Shown piece after piece: positions 10,004-63,050 of a stretch of DNA of 64,000 bases (positions are counted from its first letter, which is position 1; each line of letters opens with the position of its first letter). The DNA comes from a virus. The DNA is taken from IMG/VR virus record IMGVR_UViG_3300010352_001565, positions 51,055 through 115,054 of that record, one strand, 5' to 3'. The position numbers were made by a program, and so were the translations under genes. The notes under the pieces are model-generated. The model saw only the letters and a program-made list of their open reading frames with translations. It was not told the origin of the DNA and did no database searches.

Positions 10004-10520
10004 GCTTATGAGAACCTAAGAGTTTTGAGGCTGGCTTAAAAAGTCCAGTTCTTTAAACAACTGTTGTTGTTCGCAGTGCGAAGTGACAAGTCAGCGGCCA
10101 TAGAGCCCAAAGGTCCACATACTTCGTGAGTCGATTCAACACCCGTGGATGGTCGGCATATTATGGAGCAATGAGTGACTAGAGGACATTCCCAGTCCAG
10201 TCCAAGAGACTCCCAGGCCCACATGACCACCACGGTTTTTTAATTCCCGTTCGAGATGTCCTTTGGCAAGACTTTAAACATATGCCTGGCGCTCTGTCGC
10301 GTTGTTGTTAACGCAACCATGTCGATAACACCTGAGTTGTCTCTATCTCTCAGACGCCAAATCGCCGCTCGTGAGTTGGCTAATCCAACACGACCGGTTG
10401 ACCGGGGGCTGACCACCCCCACGCGTTCAGGCACCCCCACGCCCGCTCCCCGCGCTCCTGAAATAGGGGTCGCCAGACCCATTGGTCAACACACCGTGAT
10501 CTTTTTTCTCTTGATCACTA
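10004..10520. promoter_or_regulatory. divergent intergenic control region with direct repeats and palindromes
   Basis: 517 nt between the divergent minus helicase operon and the + block. Contains CACCCCCACGC x2 (10414-10424 and 10432-10442), GACCGG x2, and the palindrome TTCGCAGTGCGAA (~10067). The only long ORF here is low-complexity. Confidence 0.4.
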
Positions 10521-13415: not shown

Positions 13416-13450
13416 GAAATGTTTACATTTTGGCGGTCTTGGGGTATCAT
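13411..13450 (+). promoter_or_regulatory. variant copy of the repeated promoter (TTTACA-N17-TATCAT)
   Basis: CAAATAAGAAATGTTTACA then 17 nt then TATCAT. ATG of 13460 lies 9 nt downstream. Confidence 0.45.
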
Positions 13451-25446: not shown

Positions 25447-25495
25447 AAAATAGTTGCAAAAAAGTGTTTACAATTTTCCGCTCCGTGATATAGTT
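25447..25495 (+). promoter_or_regulatory. repeated promoter cassette copy 2
   Basis: AAAATAGTTGCAAAAAAGTG, TTTACA ~25468, TGATATAGT ~25487-25495. ATG lies ~7 nt downstream, so the transcript is leaderless. Displayed numbering and ORF-track numbering differ by 1 nt here. Confidence 0.7.
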
Positions 25496-26761: not shown

Positions 26762-27237
26762 TGCAAAAACCTGGACAAAAGATCAAGATCGAATACCCTG
26801 AATTGCCTGTGCTGCTGTTCGTTTACGGCACGCTTAAAAGAGGCTTTCACAACCACCACTACCTGCTTGGAGCCAACTTCAAGACTGCGGCGACAACCGT
26901 GGAGAAGTTCCCTATGGTGGCTCGTGGAATCCCATACCTTTTCAACACCCCAGGCGAGGGCACGAACATCATCGGCGAGATCTACGAGATCACCGACATC
27001 AACATGCTCCGCGCTATGGATCGTCTCGAGGGGCACCCTGACTGGTATCGCCGCTCTCCTATCAAGGTGACTGACGGAACCACCGAGATGGAAGCTCTGG
27101 TTTACTTCTCGCTTGACCAGAGATTGATGCAGAGCGTTAAGGCCAACCCAGAGATGTTCTATGCCAATGTGCCTGAGTTCACGCGGATGCACGCTGGATA
27201 CGAGACCAGCGGCGAATTGACCGCACGACGCAAATGA
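26761..27237 (+). CDS. gamma-glutamyl cyclotransferase-like (AIG2/GGCT fold) protein
   Basis: Hallmark LFVYGTLKRG motif near the N-terminus. Size ~158 aa. GAGGA Shine-Dalgarno ~10 nt upstream. Confidence 0.7.
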   Translation: MQKPGQKIKIEYPELPVLLFVYGTLKRGFHNHHYLLGANFKTAATTVEKFPMVARGIPYLFNTPGEGTNIIGEIYEITDINMLRAMDRLEGHPDWYRRSPIKVTDGTTEMEALVYFSLDQRLMQSVKANPEMFYANVPEFTRMHAGYETSGELTARRK

Positions 27238-27551
27238 CCAAGTACGACATCACAACGAAAATATCGGACGCGACTGGGATGACTCAGAAGGACGTGAACA
27301 CCGTTCTAACGCAAGCCCTCGACATCATCTCAGCCGCGCTTCTCGGTGGTGACCACGTTGAACTGCGCAACTTCGGCACATTCCTGGTGAAGACGCGCAA
27401 GCAGATGATTGGGCGCAATCCGCACAAGCCGGCTGGTGACATCATCATCCCGGCGCGCGCCTTCGTCAAGTTCAAGCCCGGCAAGGAGCTGAAGCATGGC
27501 GTGATCAAGCTCACCAACAAAGACAAACCTCTTCGCGTGATCGAGAAGTGA
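27234..27551 (+). CDS. HU/IHF-family histone-like DNA-binding protein
   Basis: ELRNFGTFLVKTRKQMIGRNPHKPAGDIIIPARAFVKFKPGKELK is the canonical HU arm. Confidence 0.85.
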   Translation: MTKYDITTKISDATGMTQKDVNTVLTQALDIISAALLGGDHVELRNFGTFLVKTRKQMIGRNPHKPAGDIIIPARAFVKFKPGKELKHGVIKLTNKDKPLRVIEK

Positions 27552-36885: not shown

Positions 36886-37191
36886 ATGGCAAATGAAACC
36901 CTGATCGCTCAAGTCAAGGCGATCATAAAAGCAACCCTGGAGACTGAAGAAGCCGCACTGCGCAAGCAGATGAACGAGCTTGCAGAGCAGCGCAAATACA
37001 GCGAAATCGTCTTTGACAAGGAGCACAACATCGCGGGCGAAAGCCTCCGCAACGGCTTGAACAGCCGCTGGCTCAACGTGCTGCGCATGCTCTCGGTCGG
37101 TGACTTCTCGATCACCTGGATCGAGCGCGAGCTTCGCGGGGACATGACTACCCTGCGTAAGATCCACGTCGCATTAGGGGACAAGGTGTGA
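36886..37191 (+). CDS. hypothetical protein
   Basis: ATG at 36886 with AAAGGA at -9. Confidence 0.55.
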   Translation: MANETLIAQVKAIIKATLETEEAALRKQMNELAEQRKYSEIVFDKEHNIAGESLRNGLNSRWLNVLRMLSVGDFSITWIERELRGDMTTLRKIHVALGDKV

Positions 37192-37382
37192 GAAGACCGA
37201 AACCAGATCGCCGTCTCCCGTCAGCTTACGCGAAGATCAAGCTTGACCCGTATCCGAACCACTCTAAGGAATGCTGCATTCGACAGAAGCCACACGGCAG
37301 ATGCGACTGCGTCTGGGACTTCCTTTCGAAGATAGAGGCCGAAAGCCAGAAAATCTACGCGAGGACGGTAGTAAGAAAGTGA
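37188..37382 (+). CDS. small Cys-containing hypothetical protein
   Basis: GTG start overlapping the upstream stop. Confidence 0.4.
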   Translation: MRRPKPDRRLPSAYAKIKLDPYPNHSKECCIRQKPHGRCDCVWDFLSKIEAESQKIYARTVVRK

Positions 37383-37546
37383 AATACAAGCGTCAGTACA
37401 AGGTTGAGTTTAGAGACCGTAAGACGAACCAGCTCACGCACGAGGTGTTCGACGGCTTCGAAGAGTTCGACGCGTACATGGACGCTCACGAGCACGAGGT
37501 CGAGGTTGCCAGCATCGATGTGAGCAACGTGCCTGACTTCAGCTAA
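37379..37546 (+). CDS. small acidic hypothetical protein
   Basis: GTG at 37379. MKYKRQYKVEFRDRK... Confidence 0.4.
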   Translation: MKYKRQYKVEFRDRKTNQLTHEVFDGFEEFDAYMDAHEHEVEVASIDVSNVPDFS

Positions 37547-37845
37547 CCAGTTAACCCCTACCGCGTTTCCACAGTTAATTGGCTCTATAACCAGTTAAGA
37601 ATCATGCCGGTAGCCGCGAAAGCGGTAGCAAACTCACCCGTGCTGTCCTCGCCGCTCACCCAGGATCATTTCAGGCATGCCAGAAGCCCAGCGAACATAT
37701 GAAGATACTCCCTGCAGCACAAAATGTCCTTAAGGGCATTTTAGGGGCCTCATTTCCTACCGGTTTCCTACCGGCTTAAGCTTTGACTTCCCCATCCCTA
37801 CCGGTTTTTAGCCCAAGTCAAGGAAAAACGTTTCTACCCACCACT
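37547..37845. promoter_or_regulatory. 300-bp noncoding region with iteron-like direct repeats (candidate origin or regulatory hub)
   Basis: CCTACCGGYTT at 37756, 37767 and 37797, with a related CCTACCGCGTTT at ~37561. CAGTTAA x3 (37548, 37574, 37594). Near-palindrome AAAATGTCCTTAAGGGCATTTT (~37719-37740). TTGACT at 37783. Confidence 0.5.
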
Positions 37846-38439
37846 ATGGACACTCCAAAATTCATCAGGACCGAACTCCTCCAGCTCTCGCCCAAGGCCA
37901 AGGCCTTGCACATCTACGTCGAAGGCGAGGTCGATCTCAACCAGTTCCTCAAATACGCTGACGAGGTCTACCACAACTTTGGCAAGGACGGCGTCATGCA
38001 GGTCTCGGTCTGGGTCACCGGCGGCGTCACGGCCTTCATCGACCAGCGCGACATGGGCTATTGGCTGATCGGGCTTACCACCATGAACACCCTGCTCGCC
38101 CAGGAGACCGCCCGCGTCCTCAAGCTCCCGAACCTGGCAGTCGAGAGCGACCTAGTCGGCCACAACATCATCCGCTCCCAGAGAGACCGCGACATCTTGC
38201 AAGTCCTGGCTACCGCCCGACCCCCGAACTTCGAGCAGATCATCAAAGAGGAATGCGACCGCTTCTACAAGGGCATGATCAAGGCACCCGCCCACTGCCC
38301 GACCTGCAAGCTCCAGTTCACCAACCCGACCACGGGCCTGGTTCAAGCCACCTGCCACCAGTGCAACAAGCCCCTCGTCGCCGGACCCCCTCTGGCACAG
38401 CCCAGGAGCTCCCCGAAGACCACGTCCCTACGACGCTAG
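37846..38439 (+). CDS. hypothetical protein with C-terminal zinc-ribbon (CPTC...CHQC); possibly continues by -1 frameshift to 38765
   Basis: ATG at 37846. After a CCCCC run (~38385) the -1 frame continues as natural-looking Pro/Thr-rich sequence ending in CPMCGRTWCECG. Confidence 0.5.
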   Translation: MDTPKFIRTELLQLSPKAKALHIYVEGEVDLNQFLKYADEVYHNFGKDGVMQVSVWVTGGVTAFIDQRDMGYWLIGLTTMNTLLAQETARVLKLPNLAVESDLVGHNIIRSQRDRDILQVLATARPPNFEQIIKEECDRFYKGMIKAPAHCPTCKLQFTNPTTGLVQATCHQCNKPLVAGPPLAQPRSSPKTTSLRR

Positions 38440-38779
38440 ACGAAGCTCCCCAGAGCCCTTCAGAGCCCCTCCTGACCAAAGTCATCCTCCCTACGCCCCT
38501 TGACCACGTCGTCACAAGCATCCTGACAGCCCCAGAGGCACCCGTCACCCAAGCCCCTGTGGAACCTAGCCCTGCCCTCTCTGTCATCCCTGACTCATGC
38601 CTGGGCTTCAAGGAAACGCCCCCTACGCAGAAAGGCTTCGGCATGGACATCTTCGAGATCGGCAACCGAGGCCCCAAGGAAACAGGCTCTAACGACTACC
38701 CGGTCTGCCCCATGTGCGGCAGAACCTGGTGTGAGTGCGGCAAGGGCCCTGAACACCGGCCCTAACCATAAGAAACCCT

Positions 38780-38971: not shown

Positions 38972-39166
38972 TAGTGGACGAAGAGCTCTATTGCCACGCC
39001 ATAGCAGTCCCTGAATCCATCTACATTGACTTCAATGCGTATGACGTCTGCCTAGACGGGAAGAGGGTGCGCATCATGCGGCCTAAGAGCACCTGGGACT
39101 GATTAACGGACTGACATGCCGTTCTCTACGCGAAAGCGGTCCAACATCTAAATCGTAGACAAATTT

Positions 39167-60116: not shown

Positions 60117-61498
60117 TTGCAAATCCGTGCAGGTTCGATTCCTGCCGCGTTCGCCATAGTTATGGCATGCCCGCAAAGGACATTCTAGCCCAGCTGATTG
60201 GAGAGTCGGTCACATACCGGCTTCCCCAATCTAAAAACGTCCTCTTCTACGATTTCTACGTTCTCTCGTACCTTCGCAGCCTGAACCTCGATCCCACGTC
60301 AAAGGACTCCAGGGCGTCATTCTTCGGCGGCGAGGTGAAAGAGGATGTCGATCACGCCGTCCAGGTGCTGGTCCCCTACCTCCGTCAGAACCTCCTCGAC
60401 GCTACATTCCTGAGCATCTGCGCTGAGATCCGCCACAGCCTCACTGAGCTTCCTGAGTGGAAGCAGTTGGCCAGGAAAATGCCAATGATGTTTGACTACG
60501 CTCGGAACTATCTTTCCAAGCACGCAGGCATGCTTCGCCATACTGGAGAGCCATACCCGGTCAGAGGGAATTCAAAGAGCTATGACGATTCAGTCGTGGC
60601 GGCGCTTCGCACGATCAGAGACAGGCAGTCAAGCAAGCGCGAGTTCGTGTTTAATTGCCGCAAGATGTTCGCGTCAGGGGGCTGGTCGGCTGATTACGGC
60701 GGCAGACCGTGGGCCGGCATCTGCGACGCCTGGATTCGCTTGCACGACACCAACCCTGGAGATCCGAGCGCGAACTTCGTCAGCATCGACCACCTGTTCG
60801 ATATGCAGCACAACACGGGCACGGTGCTCAACAAGGTGAAGGAGTACGCGATCGACGGAGGATATAGCTGGCTTTCACGCGGTCTCGACAACAAGGCCAA
60901 GGTCTCGTCTATCCGGCTGCTGCTTCCAAACTGCTCAAGCGACATGCAACGTCTAGCGGCGAAAACGCTGAAGACGGGCGGAGAGCCAGAGATTCAAAAG
61001 CCTAAGGACTGGCCAAAGTACTTCCAATACGGAGCAACGCTGTTCAAAGCCGAATCTGCAACGTGCAAAGGTTTTTGGTACAAGGACGCGACAAGTGAGT
61101 GGATCCCACGGTTGTCACCAGAGTCGCTCTTTGACTACGCGAAGAGGCACAACTTTAGGGCGCTTACTCCTAAGGACGTGGCCGTAAGCTTTCCGTGCGC
61201 TATTGGCTACAGCAAGCAGTACACTGGGTATGACGCCAAGAAGGCAAAGTATACCAGCGCCGAAGATGAAGAAGAGCGGCGCGATCCTCCGCCTCGCGTC
61301 CACGGCCACGCGCATGTAACATTCCTTCACGACGGAAAGACCTATGACCTGGTGTACTCGCACTTCTGCGGCGGGACGCTGATCCGGCTTCCGAAAGAGC
61401 TCGGTGGAAATTGGGGAACCTACTACAAGGGCGAGATCAAGGACGGAAAAGTGATTCACAGGATCGGCCCAGTTGACTTCAACAGCGGGCACAAGTGA
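60113..61498 (+). CDS. hypothetical protein (461 aa)
   Basis: Long ORF. No motif recognised. Confidence 0.6.
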   Translation: MIANPCRFDSCRVRHSYGMPAKDILAQLIGESVTYRLPQSKNVLFYDFYVLSYLRSLNLDPTSKDSRASFFGGEVKEDVDHAVQVLVPYLRQNLLDATFLSICAEIRHSLTELPEWKQLARKMPMMFDYARNYLSKHAGMLRHTGEPYPVRGNSKSYDDSVVAALRTIRDRQSSKREFVFNCRKMFASGGWSADYGGRPWAGICDAWIRLHDTNPGDPSANFVSIDHLFDMQHNTGTVLNKVKEYAIDGGYSWLSRGLDNKAKVSSIRLLLPNCSSDMQRLAAKTLKTGGEPEIQKPKDWPKYFQYGATLFKAESATCKGFWYKDATSEWIPRLSPESLFDYAKRHNFRALTPKDVAVSFPCAIGYSKQYTGYDAKKAKYTSAEDEEERRDPPPRVHGHAHVTFLHDGKTYDLVYSHFCGGTLIRLPKELGGNWGTYYKGEIKDGKVIHRIGPVDFNSGHK

Positions 61499-62892: not shown

Positions 62893-62933
62893 TTGCAAAT
62901 AAATGTTTACATTTTTGCGTATCGTGATATAGT
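62886..62933 (+). promoter_or_regulatory. repeated promoter cassette copy 7
   Basis: AAAATAGTTGCAAATAAATG, TTTACA 62906-62911, TGATATAGT to 62933. No ATG follows for ~117 nt. Confidence 0.7.
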
Positions 62934-62939
62934 GCTCCC

Positions 62940-63050
62940 ATCGACGGTGAAAGTAGTCGGGTGACTACACCTGAAAGCATCTCCGCCCGAAAGGACGGAG
63001 GGATGAACTGAGGGAGAGCGGGTTCGAGTCCCGGTATCGTCGTCATTAAC
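62940..63050 (+). ncRNA. structured ~110-nt leader or small RNA with tRNA-like T-arm
   Basis: Hairpins GTAGTC-GGGTG-GACTAC and CTCCGCC-cGAAAg-GACGGAG. T-arm-like GCGGG-TTCGAGT-CCCGG at 63018-63034. The flanking GACGGTG (62943-62949) can pair with TATCGTC (63035-63041) as an acceptor-like stem. No anticodon arm. Confidence 0.25.

Follow-up and report, generated by a model that had tools for sequence, protein, structure and literature searches.

A cluster of CTACCGS repeats in a non-coding gap of an uncultured jumbo phage: a candidate transcription control region at an operon boundary

A non-coding gap in a densely packed phage genome

The locus lies within a 64,000-nt stretch of DNA (hereafter the window, meaning the whole stretch that was analysed) from an uncultured jumbo phage, whose genome is at least 222 kb, the 197-aa protein encoded beside the locus being found also on a 222.7-kb contig. 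Its recognisable genes include those for a T4-like portal, 23–25% identical to the portals of the nearest cultured phages, and a gp25-like baseplate protein; nearly all the others are ORFans, and Shine-Dalgarno sequences are generally absent from the genes of this phage. Genes around the locus overlap or sit 1–16 nt apart, and the median spacing elsewhere is a few nucleotides. The 299-nt gap between the stop codon ending at 37546 and the ATG at 37846 (37547–37845) is the longest in the window between co-directional genes, with a small plus-strand gene (91 aa, 37271–37546) upstream and the gene for the 197-aa ORFan (37846–38439) downstream. The sole longer non-coding stretch in the window is a 517-nt divergent junction at 10.0–10.5 kb.

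The gap is truly non-coding, which bears out its description in the initial annotation as a gene-free region of about 300 bp. Public annotations of identical DNA likewise place no gene in these 299 nt, and every one of the six reading frames has codon log-odds below zero (−0.13 to −0.71 bits per codon), compared with +0.31 and +0.46 bits per codon for the flanking genes and a yardstick of +0.14, the 5th percentile among the small genes of the phage. A small protein overlooked in the gap had been raised there as a possibility; the longest ORF inside is 32 aa, scoring of the six frames found no gene with the codon bias of the phage, and this explanation is disfavoured.

A promoter of ~52 nt is exceptionally well conserved in this phage, AAAATAGTTGCAAAWAARTG-TTTACA-N16-TATAGT, in which the spacer, AWTTTCCGYNNCGTGA, is conserved too. 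Copies occur in the window at 13422, 23109, 25467, 28347, 34201, 52038, 57331 and 62906 (seven canonical and one variant), with one further copy in the flank (L057:14992). They score 62–84 bits with the promoter PWM, the next best site scoring −9, and the pattern was absent from IMG/VR. In five copies an ATG follows TATAGT by 6–9 nt, which implies leaderless mRNAs. From 23109 onwards the promoters are spaced 2.4–5.9 kb apart, save for the 17.8 kb between 34201 and 52038. The gap lies 3.3 kb downstream of promoter 34201, and it is the only sizeable non-coding DNA heading a 14-kb block that has no conserved promoter; this block must therefore be expressed by another route. Base composition also shifts at the gap, GC content rising from 0.48–0.55 upstream to 0.59–0.64 downstream and GC skew going from ~0 on the left to between −0.20 and −0.26 on the right.

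Two further observations concern the composition and coding capacity of the window. Its AT-richest spots are the UP regions of the promoters, and an HU/IHF-type DNA-bending protein is encoded at 27234–27551 (Pfam Bac_DNA_binding, E = 8e-24).

Sequence elements of the gap

The gap and its margins hold the following elements, in which S1 to S6 denote copies of the core CTACCGS.

37544–37598, plus strand: left repeat family, with TAACCAGTTAA twice, the first copy overlapping the upstream stop codon, and CAGTTAA within CCACAGTTAATTGG
37557–37567, plus strand: S1, CCTACCGCGTT, core in direct orientation
37569–37582: near-palindrome CCACAGTTAATTGG, with CAGTTAA inside
37603–37628, minus strand: S2 (CCGGTAG, 37607–37613) and S3 (GCGGTAG, 37622–37628), inverted copies of the core
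37603–37628: composite element CATGCCG-N5-CGCGAAAGCGGT, covering S2, S3 and the hairpin of the next line
37614–37625: GNRA-capped hairpin CCGC-GAAA-GCGG, flanked and overlapped by S2 and S3
37633–37681, no strand: spacer with minor repeats, namely CTCACCC twice (37633 and 37655) and the 8-bp palindrome GGCATGCC (37674–37681), of candidate significance only
37721–37742, no strand: near-palindrome AAAATGTCC-TTAA-GGGCATTTT, unique in the window
37756–37777, plus strand: S4 (CCTACCGGTTT) and S5 (CCTACCGGCTT), head to tail with an 11-bp period, one helical turn
37781–37823, no strand: inverted repeat CTTTGACTT (37781–37789) and AAGTCAAGG (37815–37823), enclosing S6
37797–37807: S6, CCTACCGGTTT, within that inverted repeat
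37826–37848, plus strand: start-proximal segment, with the palindrome AAACGTTT and then TTCTACC 8 nt before the ATG at 37846; no Shine-Dalgarno sequence

On the left side of the gap, the three CAGTTAA heptamers listed in the initial annotation are present, at 37548, 37572 and 37592, the last two being 2 nt away from where it had placed them. Two of the three are housed in an exact 11-mer, TAACCAGTTAA, at 37544–37554 and 37588–37598. The heptamer occurs only four times on both strands of the 64 kb, three of these inside a 51-bp stretch here. AT content in the gap peaks over the 40 bp at 37566–37605, where GC is 32.5%, a value among the lowest 1% for 40-bp windows; this segment holds the CAGTTAA copies at 37572 and 37592, the third copy (37548) being 18 bp upstream. 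As RNA, the left repeat family would form a weak 8-bp hairpin (−6.4 kcal/mol, z = −1.72).

The 22-bp near-palindrome reported there is likewise found, as AAAATGTCCTTAAGGGCATTTT at 37721–37742; compared with its reverse complement it departs at two of 22 positions, equivalent to one mismatched T/G pair, and the window has no other copy. Possible roles are a dyad-symmetric operator or, at the RNA level, a weak terminator made of a 9-bp hairpin with only four U residues after it. The composite element that spans S2 and S3, with its match placed at 37603–37626, has a second copy, CATGCCG-N7-CGCGAAAGCGGT, at 39115–39140 (two matches compared with 0.01 expected), located in the next intergenic gap (64 nt), 26 nt before the gene for a 1046-aa protein.

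The TTCTACC near the ATG belongs to a more widespread pattern, TTCTACM, which at 25495, 33377, 33949, 36217 and 37832 lies 1–8 nt ahead of an annotated start. There are 11 plus-strand occurrences in the 64 kb, five of them start-proximal, an enrichment with a hand-estimated P of ~0.01 once the cases that prompted the motif are discounted. Its position is approximately that of the −10 hexamer in the leaderless promoters, and it may be a start-proximal signal or a −10-like element of a second promoter class.

Two other candidate features of the gap were rejected. A 13-nt pair at its ends, TGACTTCAGCTAA and TTAGCCCAAGTCA, was considered as the possible terminal inverted repeats of a mobile element. 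It matches at 11 of 13 positions, but 14 pairs of this quality occur in 600 bp, which is chance level, and it was dropped. Homology to a 213-nt gap at 33.2 kb was also rejected, since the two gaps fail to align.

The CTACCGS cluster is non-random and locally unique

All three copies of CCTACCGGYTT given in the initial annotation were recovered, as CCTACCGGTTT at 37756–37766 and 37797–37807 and CCTACCGGCTT at 37767–37777, as was a related sequence reported near 37561, CCTACCGCGTT, whose exact place is 37557–37567. Beyond these, we identified two inverted copies of the core, CCGGTAG (37607–37613) and GCGGTAG (37622–37628). The array is thus made up of six copies of a 7–11-bp word, four direct and two inverted, with one tandem pair, and the sites aligned on the core read yC-CTACCG-S-(N)-TT. 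Measured from S1, the other direct sites lie at 199, 210 and 240 bp, roughly on one face of the helix, and the centres of S4, S5 and S6 are ~86, ~75 and ~45 bp, respectively, upstream of the ATG at 37846.

Six of the 16 copies of CTACCGS in the 64-kb window fall within a ~250-bp part of the gap. Simple counts of repeats were uninformative: an 11-mer present three times (with at most one mismatch) within 300 bp was found in 29 of 40 dinucleotide-shuffled windows, indicating no excess, and a hexamer present six times within 300 bp in six of 30, which is weak. In a conditional test, the core was defined from the 52-bp tandem block alone and the remaining 247 bp of the gap were then scored. This revealed three further copies; the density in the other 63.7 kb, which has 10 copies, predicts 0.039 (Poisson P = 9e-6). 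The CTACCGS cluster in the gap is therefore non-random, and the clustering of CAGTTAA is independent of it. No second CTACCGS cluster was found in the window or in ~18 kb of extra flank from other assemblies (~82 kb in total).

Promoter, terminator and RNA signals in the gap

The hexamer TTGACT noted earlier as −35-like is present at 37783–37788, but a role in a promoter was not borne out, as no −10 element lies 16–18 bp downstream, where the sequence reads TTTTAG, TTTAGC or TTAGCC. The hexamer sits in the left arm of the inverted repeat (CTTTGACTT and AAGTCAAGG) that brackets S6. The plus strand of the gap was scanned for sigma-70 pairs, extended −10 elements and sigma-54, ECF and Bacteroidota promoter motifs, and had none; the conserved promoter of the phage has no copy in the gap either, where the best PWM score is −33 bits.

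Evidence for a structured RNA was similarly lacking. The gap contains no tRNA or tmRNA and no Rfam family at the gathering threshold, with nothing credible at E <= 10. Folding of the whole gap was no more stable than that of shuffled sequences (z = −1.27 for the plus strand and −0.18 for the minus strand), and sliding 120-nt windows across it, with z from −1.74 to +1.78, disclosed no stable structure. The palindromic hairpin at 37721–37742 has a centroid energy of −8.9 and an MFE of −10.7 kcal/mol (z = −0.69); three G-C, one G-U and five A-U pairs make up its 9-bp stem, which is followed by UUUU and then A, and a terminator scan of the gap did not call it.

Transcription control as the preferred reading

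Our preferred reading, which we hold tentatively, is that the gap is a protein-binding operator or activator array, together with a weak hairpin, at a transcription-unit boundary. Transcription control at an operon boundary is, in our assessment, likelier than replication initiation and the most likely function overall. The initial annotation had offered an iteron-type origin or an operator array; the array half fits as a candidate, because a non-random and locally unique motif occurs in both orientations in non-coding DNA upstream of a gene at a boundary, while the iteron-type origin is a less likely possibility with no positive support.

In the mechanism that we propose, one putative sequence-specific protein, encoded by the phage or its host, would recognise the asymmetric core CTACCGS(N)TT and occupy all six sites, namely S1, the inverted S2 and S3, the tandem S4 and S5, and S6. 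S1–S3 may loop to S4–S6, and the resulting protein–DNA complex would gate RNA polymerase at the gap. The palindromic hairpin and the bound array might stop or attenuate read-through of the upstream operon begun at promoter 34201, and the array could turn on an activator-dependent start, not of sigma-70 type, for the downstream 14-kb block, which opens with the gene for the 197-aa zinc-ribbon ORFan. We infer that a protein binds, that the DNA loops and in which direction expression is regulated.

Several properties of the array are in line with a protein target. One asymmetric word recurs in direct and inverted orientation, a pattern better explained by a protein site than by RNA pairing. The array sits just ahead of the first gene in a block of distinct composition that has no conserved promoter, and a dyad with a weak hairpin separates its two groups of sites. 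The motif is repeated within ~100 bp upstream of a gene start (S4–S6) and, leaderless transcripts being common in this phage, these sites would be at activator-like distances. Moreover, the recurrence of the composite CATGCCG-N5/7-CGCGAAAGCGGT before the gene for the 1046-aa protein fits a locally used regulatory signal, and the start-proximal TTCTACM pattern likewise agrees with this reading. Against the operator reading, the gap holds no recognisable core promoter, and its palindromic hairpin is a poor intrinsic terminator. The presence of a single cluster in ~82 kb fits a dedicated operator, and equally a one-per-genome site such as an origin.

Known phage operators provide a useful comparison. 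The repressor of Bacillus phage phi105 has six direct-repeat 14-bp operators, and that of Mu has the O1–O3 arrays of ~11-bp sites. Like these, the gap presents several short non-palindromic words, direct and inverted, in 200–300 bp of non-coding DNA near a gene start, with a spacing compatible with cooperative binding or looping. The phi105 and Mu operators differ in that they overlap sigma-70 promoters and lie beside the repressor gene, usually between divergent genes, whereas the gap has no recognisable promoter or regulator and its flanking genes are co-directional. A repeat-rich intergenic control or initiation region is a familiar kind of phage feature. If a phage protein does bind the array, the locus would give a handle on regulation or replication in an ORFan-rich jumbo-phage lineage, and the motif could serve as bait for the binding protein; the boundary marked by the array, together with the conserved leaderless promoter, would then define temporal gene classes.

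Replication origin and other alternatives

As an origin, which we regard as less likely, the gap would have an initiator binding the six CTACCGS boxes and opening the adjoining AT-rich CAGTTAA segment at 37566–37605. That the boxes form a single cluster in ~82 kb, in both orientations and with the direct ones roughly in helical phase, would suit such a site, as would the neighbouring segment, with its 32.5% GC (lowest 1%) and two of the three CAGTTAA repeats, and the HU/IHF-like protein encoded at 27234–27551. The repeat units, however, are 7–11 bp, half the length of classical iterons, which are typically 17–22 bp, and the AT-rich patch is modest (67% AT over 40 bp), so that it is DUE-like in a relative sense only. 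Neither a DnaA (TTWTNCACA) nor an IHF (WATCAR-N4-TTR) consensus was found on either strand of 37520–37860. No Rep, DnaA, primase or helicase family is represented among the flanking genes, and the one helicase gene of the 82 kb lies 28 kb off, next to the 517-bp divergent non-coding region. The check suggested in the initial annotation, cumulative GC skew, gave no minimum and no origin-type inflection at the gap when run over the window, and on the right side of the gap the skew shifts to more negative values, opposite to what a rightward-firing origin would give.

Comparison with small phage-related origins leads to a similar balance. The P4 origin carries octamer boxes of either orientation, to which the alpha protein binds. 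The repeats of PLE NCR3, bound by RepA, provide an example of an iteron origin (PMC7145576). The gap shares with these a single non-coding locus, short repeated boxes and a relatively AT-rich, repeat-bearing neighbouring segment, and its layout matches the generic recipe, outlined in PMC7145576 and the review cited there, in which initiators generally bind repeats adjoining AT-rich DNA. It differs from them in having no linked initiator, marked AT-rich element, host-factor boxes or skew signal. A broader version seems to us unlikely. In it the gap would be an origin, or a T4-style origin combining a regulated promoter and an unwinding element, of a deep-branching jumbo-phage lineage that has no database relatives; its 7–11-bp CTACCGS boxes would be bound by an initiator lacking known homologues, which might be the 197-aa zinc-ribbon ORFan itself.

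The divergent region at 10004–10520 is a more conventional candidate place for an origin, or for divergent promoters, than the gap. Its 517 non-coding nt (535 nt if the public GTG start, 10539, is used) lie between the helicase gene, on the minus strand, and a long plus-strand block, and contain CACCCCCACGC twice with 18-bp spacing and a small local minimum of cumulative GC skew. The 9–12-mers common to the gap and this region were at chance level and were disregarded.

There is a slim chance that the gap has no dedicated function and is a decayed gene or a recombination scar between modules, its repeats having arisen through slippage or duplication. The GC step suggests a mosaic junction, the simplest repeat statistics are matched by shuffled sequence, and the S4–S5 tandem could stem from slippage. 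Weighing against this are the enrichment of the core (P ~1e-5), with copies dispersed over 250 bp in both orientations, and the occurrence within the same 299 bp of another repeat family, independent of the first, as well as of the 22-bp dyad that is unique in the window, in a phage whose genes elsewhere are separated by a median of only a few nucleotides.

Action at the RNA level, as a terminator or attenuator, a 5′-UTR or a small RNA in which CGGUAG and CUACCG pair in alternative helices, is improbable and, like an attP site, disfavoured. The MFE fold does pair 37606–37632 with 37750–37777, there is a 9-bp hairpin followed by UUUU, and S3 can pair either within the GNRA-capped CCGC-GAAA-GCGG hairpin or with S4, as in an attenuator. 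Yet fold energies are no better than those of shuffled sequences on either strand or in any 120-nt window, no Rfam family is matched even at E <= 10, the palindromic hairpin fails the terminator scan, and no promoter lies upstream of the putative small RNA; base pairing also leaves the four same-sense copies of the motif unexplained.

Most improbable of all would be another one-per-genome site, be it a lambda-type attP, a packaging site or terminus, or a partition site: the gap resembles lambda attP in having arm-type-like sites around a central dyad (inverted sites on one arm and the ~11-bp, one-turn tandem sites on the other) in a phage that encodes an HU/IHF-like protein, but no gene for an integrase, recombinase, ParA/ParB or terminase was found in the 82 kb examined, and neither an exact copy of the palindrome nor a close relative of the portal occurs in 185,579 species genomes, so that neither an attB nor a prophage is indicated, and the phage has a genome of at least 222 kb and T4-like head genes, including the portal. 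Jumbo phages with a T4-like portal are usually lytic headful packagers.

Neighbouring proteins and the search for relatives

A regulator was not apparent among the products of the flanking genes, which in Pfam (curated threshold) and PHROGs searches had no significant match and no DNA-binding regulator or HTH. The C-terminus of the 197-aa protein resembles a Cys4 zinc ribbon, with a sub-threshold match to IBR (E = 0.005). AlphaFold models of this protein and of a 101-aa neighbour, encoded at 36886–37191, had pLDDT of 45 and 57, too low for fold comparison, and sequence searches of the PDB returned nothing significant. Neither the 197-aa nor the 1046-aa neighbour had homologues among 5.8 billion proteins or 1.84 billion representatives; the lone match, P0003, aligned ~22 identical tandem repeats with a single 50-aa stretch of the query, and its summed score was judged spurious.

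Searches at the DNA level gave a similar outcome. IMG/VR yielded neither the tandem motif nor any close relative of the helicase or the 197-aa protein, phage and plasmid DNA collections held no match to the locus, and a metagenome scan with CCTACCGGNTTCCTACCGG produced 55 loci, none of them related to the window by blastn. A lead from an MVP-like protein ended at an unrelated megaphage of 34% GC. Protein, DNA-pattern and promoter-pattern searches thus found no diverged relative of the locus in any collection searched, and the other assemblies of the locus (ENA, JGI samples) were 100% identical to it, with no polymorphism.

Long 10/11-bp tandem arrays of (A)TCCTACCGGAT were seen in two unrelated marine metagenome contigs (L035:1–240 and L053:600–900), the first AT-rich and with no convincing ORFs. 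These arrays have the same octamer core as the gap, a likeness that is probably a coincidence.

Other features of the window

Downstream of the 197-aa gene, which ends at 38439, a 340-nt stretch (38440–38779) has no public gene call yet looks coding. Codon bias over 38440–38765 is +0.21 bits per codon in the frame of an ORF at 38061–38765, which is −1 relative to the 197-aa gene, and the segment ends in a second zinc-ribbon-like motif, CPMCGRTWCEC. It could be a frameshift fusion or have an unconventional start.

The most terminator-like hairpin near the locus is a perfect 10-bp G+C-rich inverted repeat at 33303–33343, GCGGCGGGTC-N21-GACCCGCCGC followed by AAAATTTT, inside the 213-nt gap at 33175–33387. 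Farther upstream, at ~27,060–27,330, independent assemblies from different samples break (NODE_209 ends there, and NODE_110 and k141_566065 start), which suggests a repeat or a strain-variable spot.

Immediately after the promoter copy at 62906 comes a tRNA-like element on the plus strand (62943–63041). The acceptor stem, the D arm and a perfect T arm (GCGGGTTCGAGTCCCG) are all present, with ~37 extra nt in place of the anticodon and variable arms; the score of the element against Rfam tRNA-Sec is sub-threshold (23.4 bits, E = 0.014), and ARAGORN calls nothing. A weaker T-arm-like sequence, GCAGGTTCGATTCCTGC, is present at ~60129–60145.
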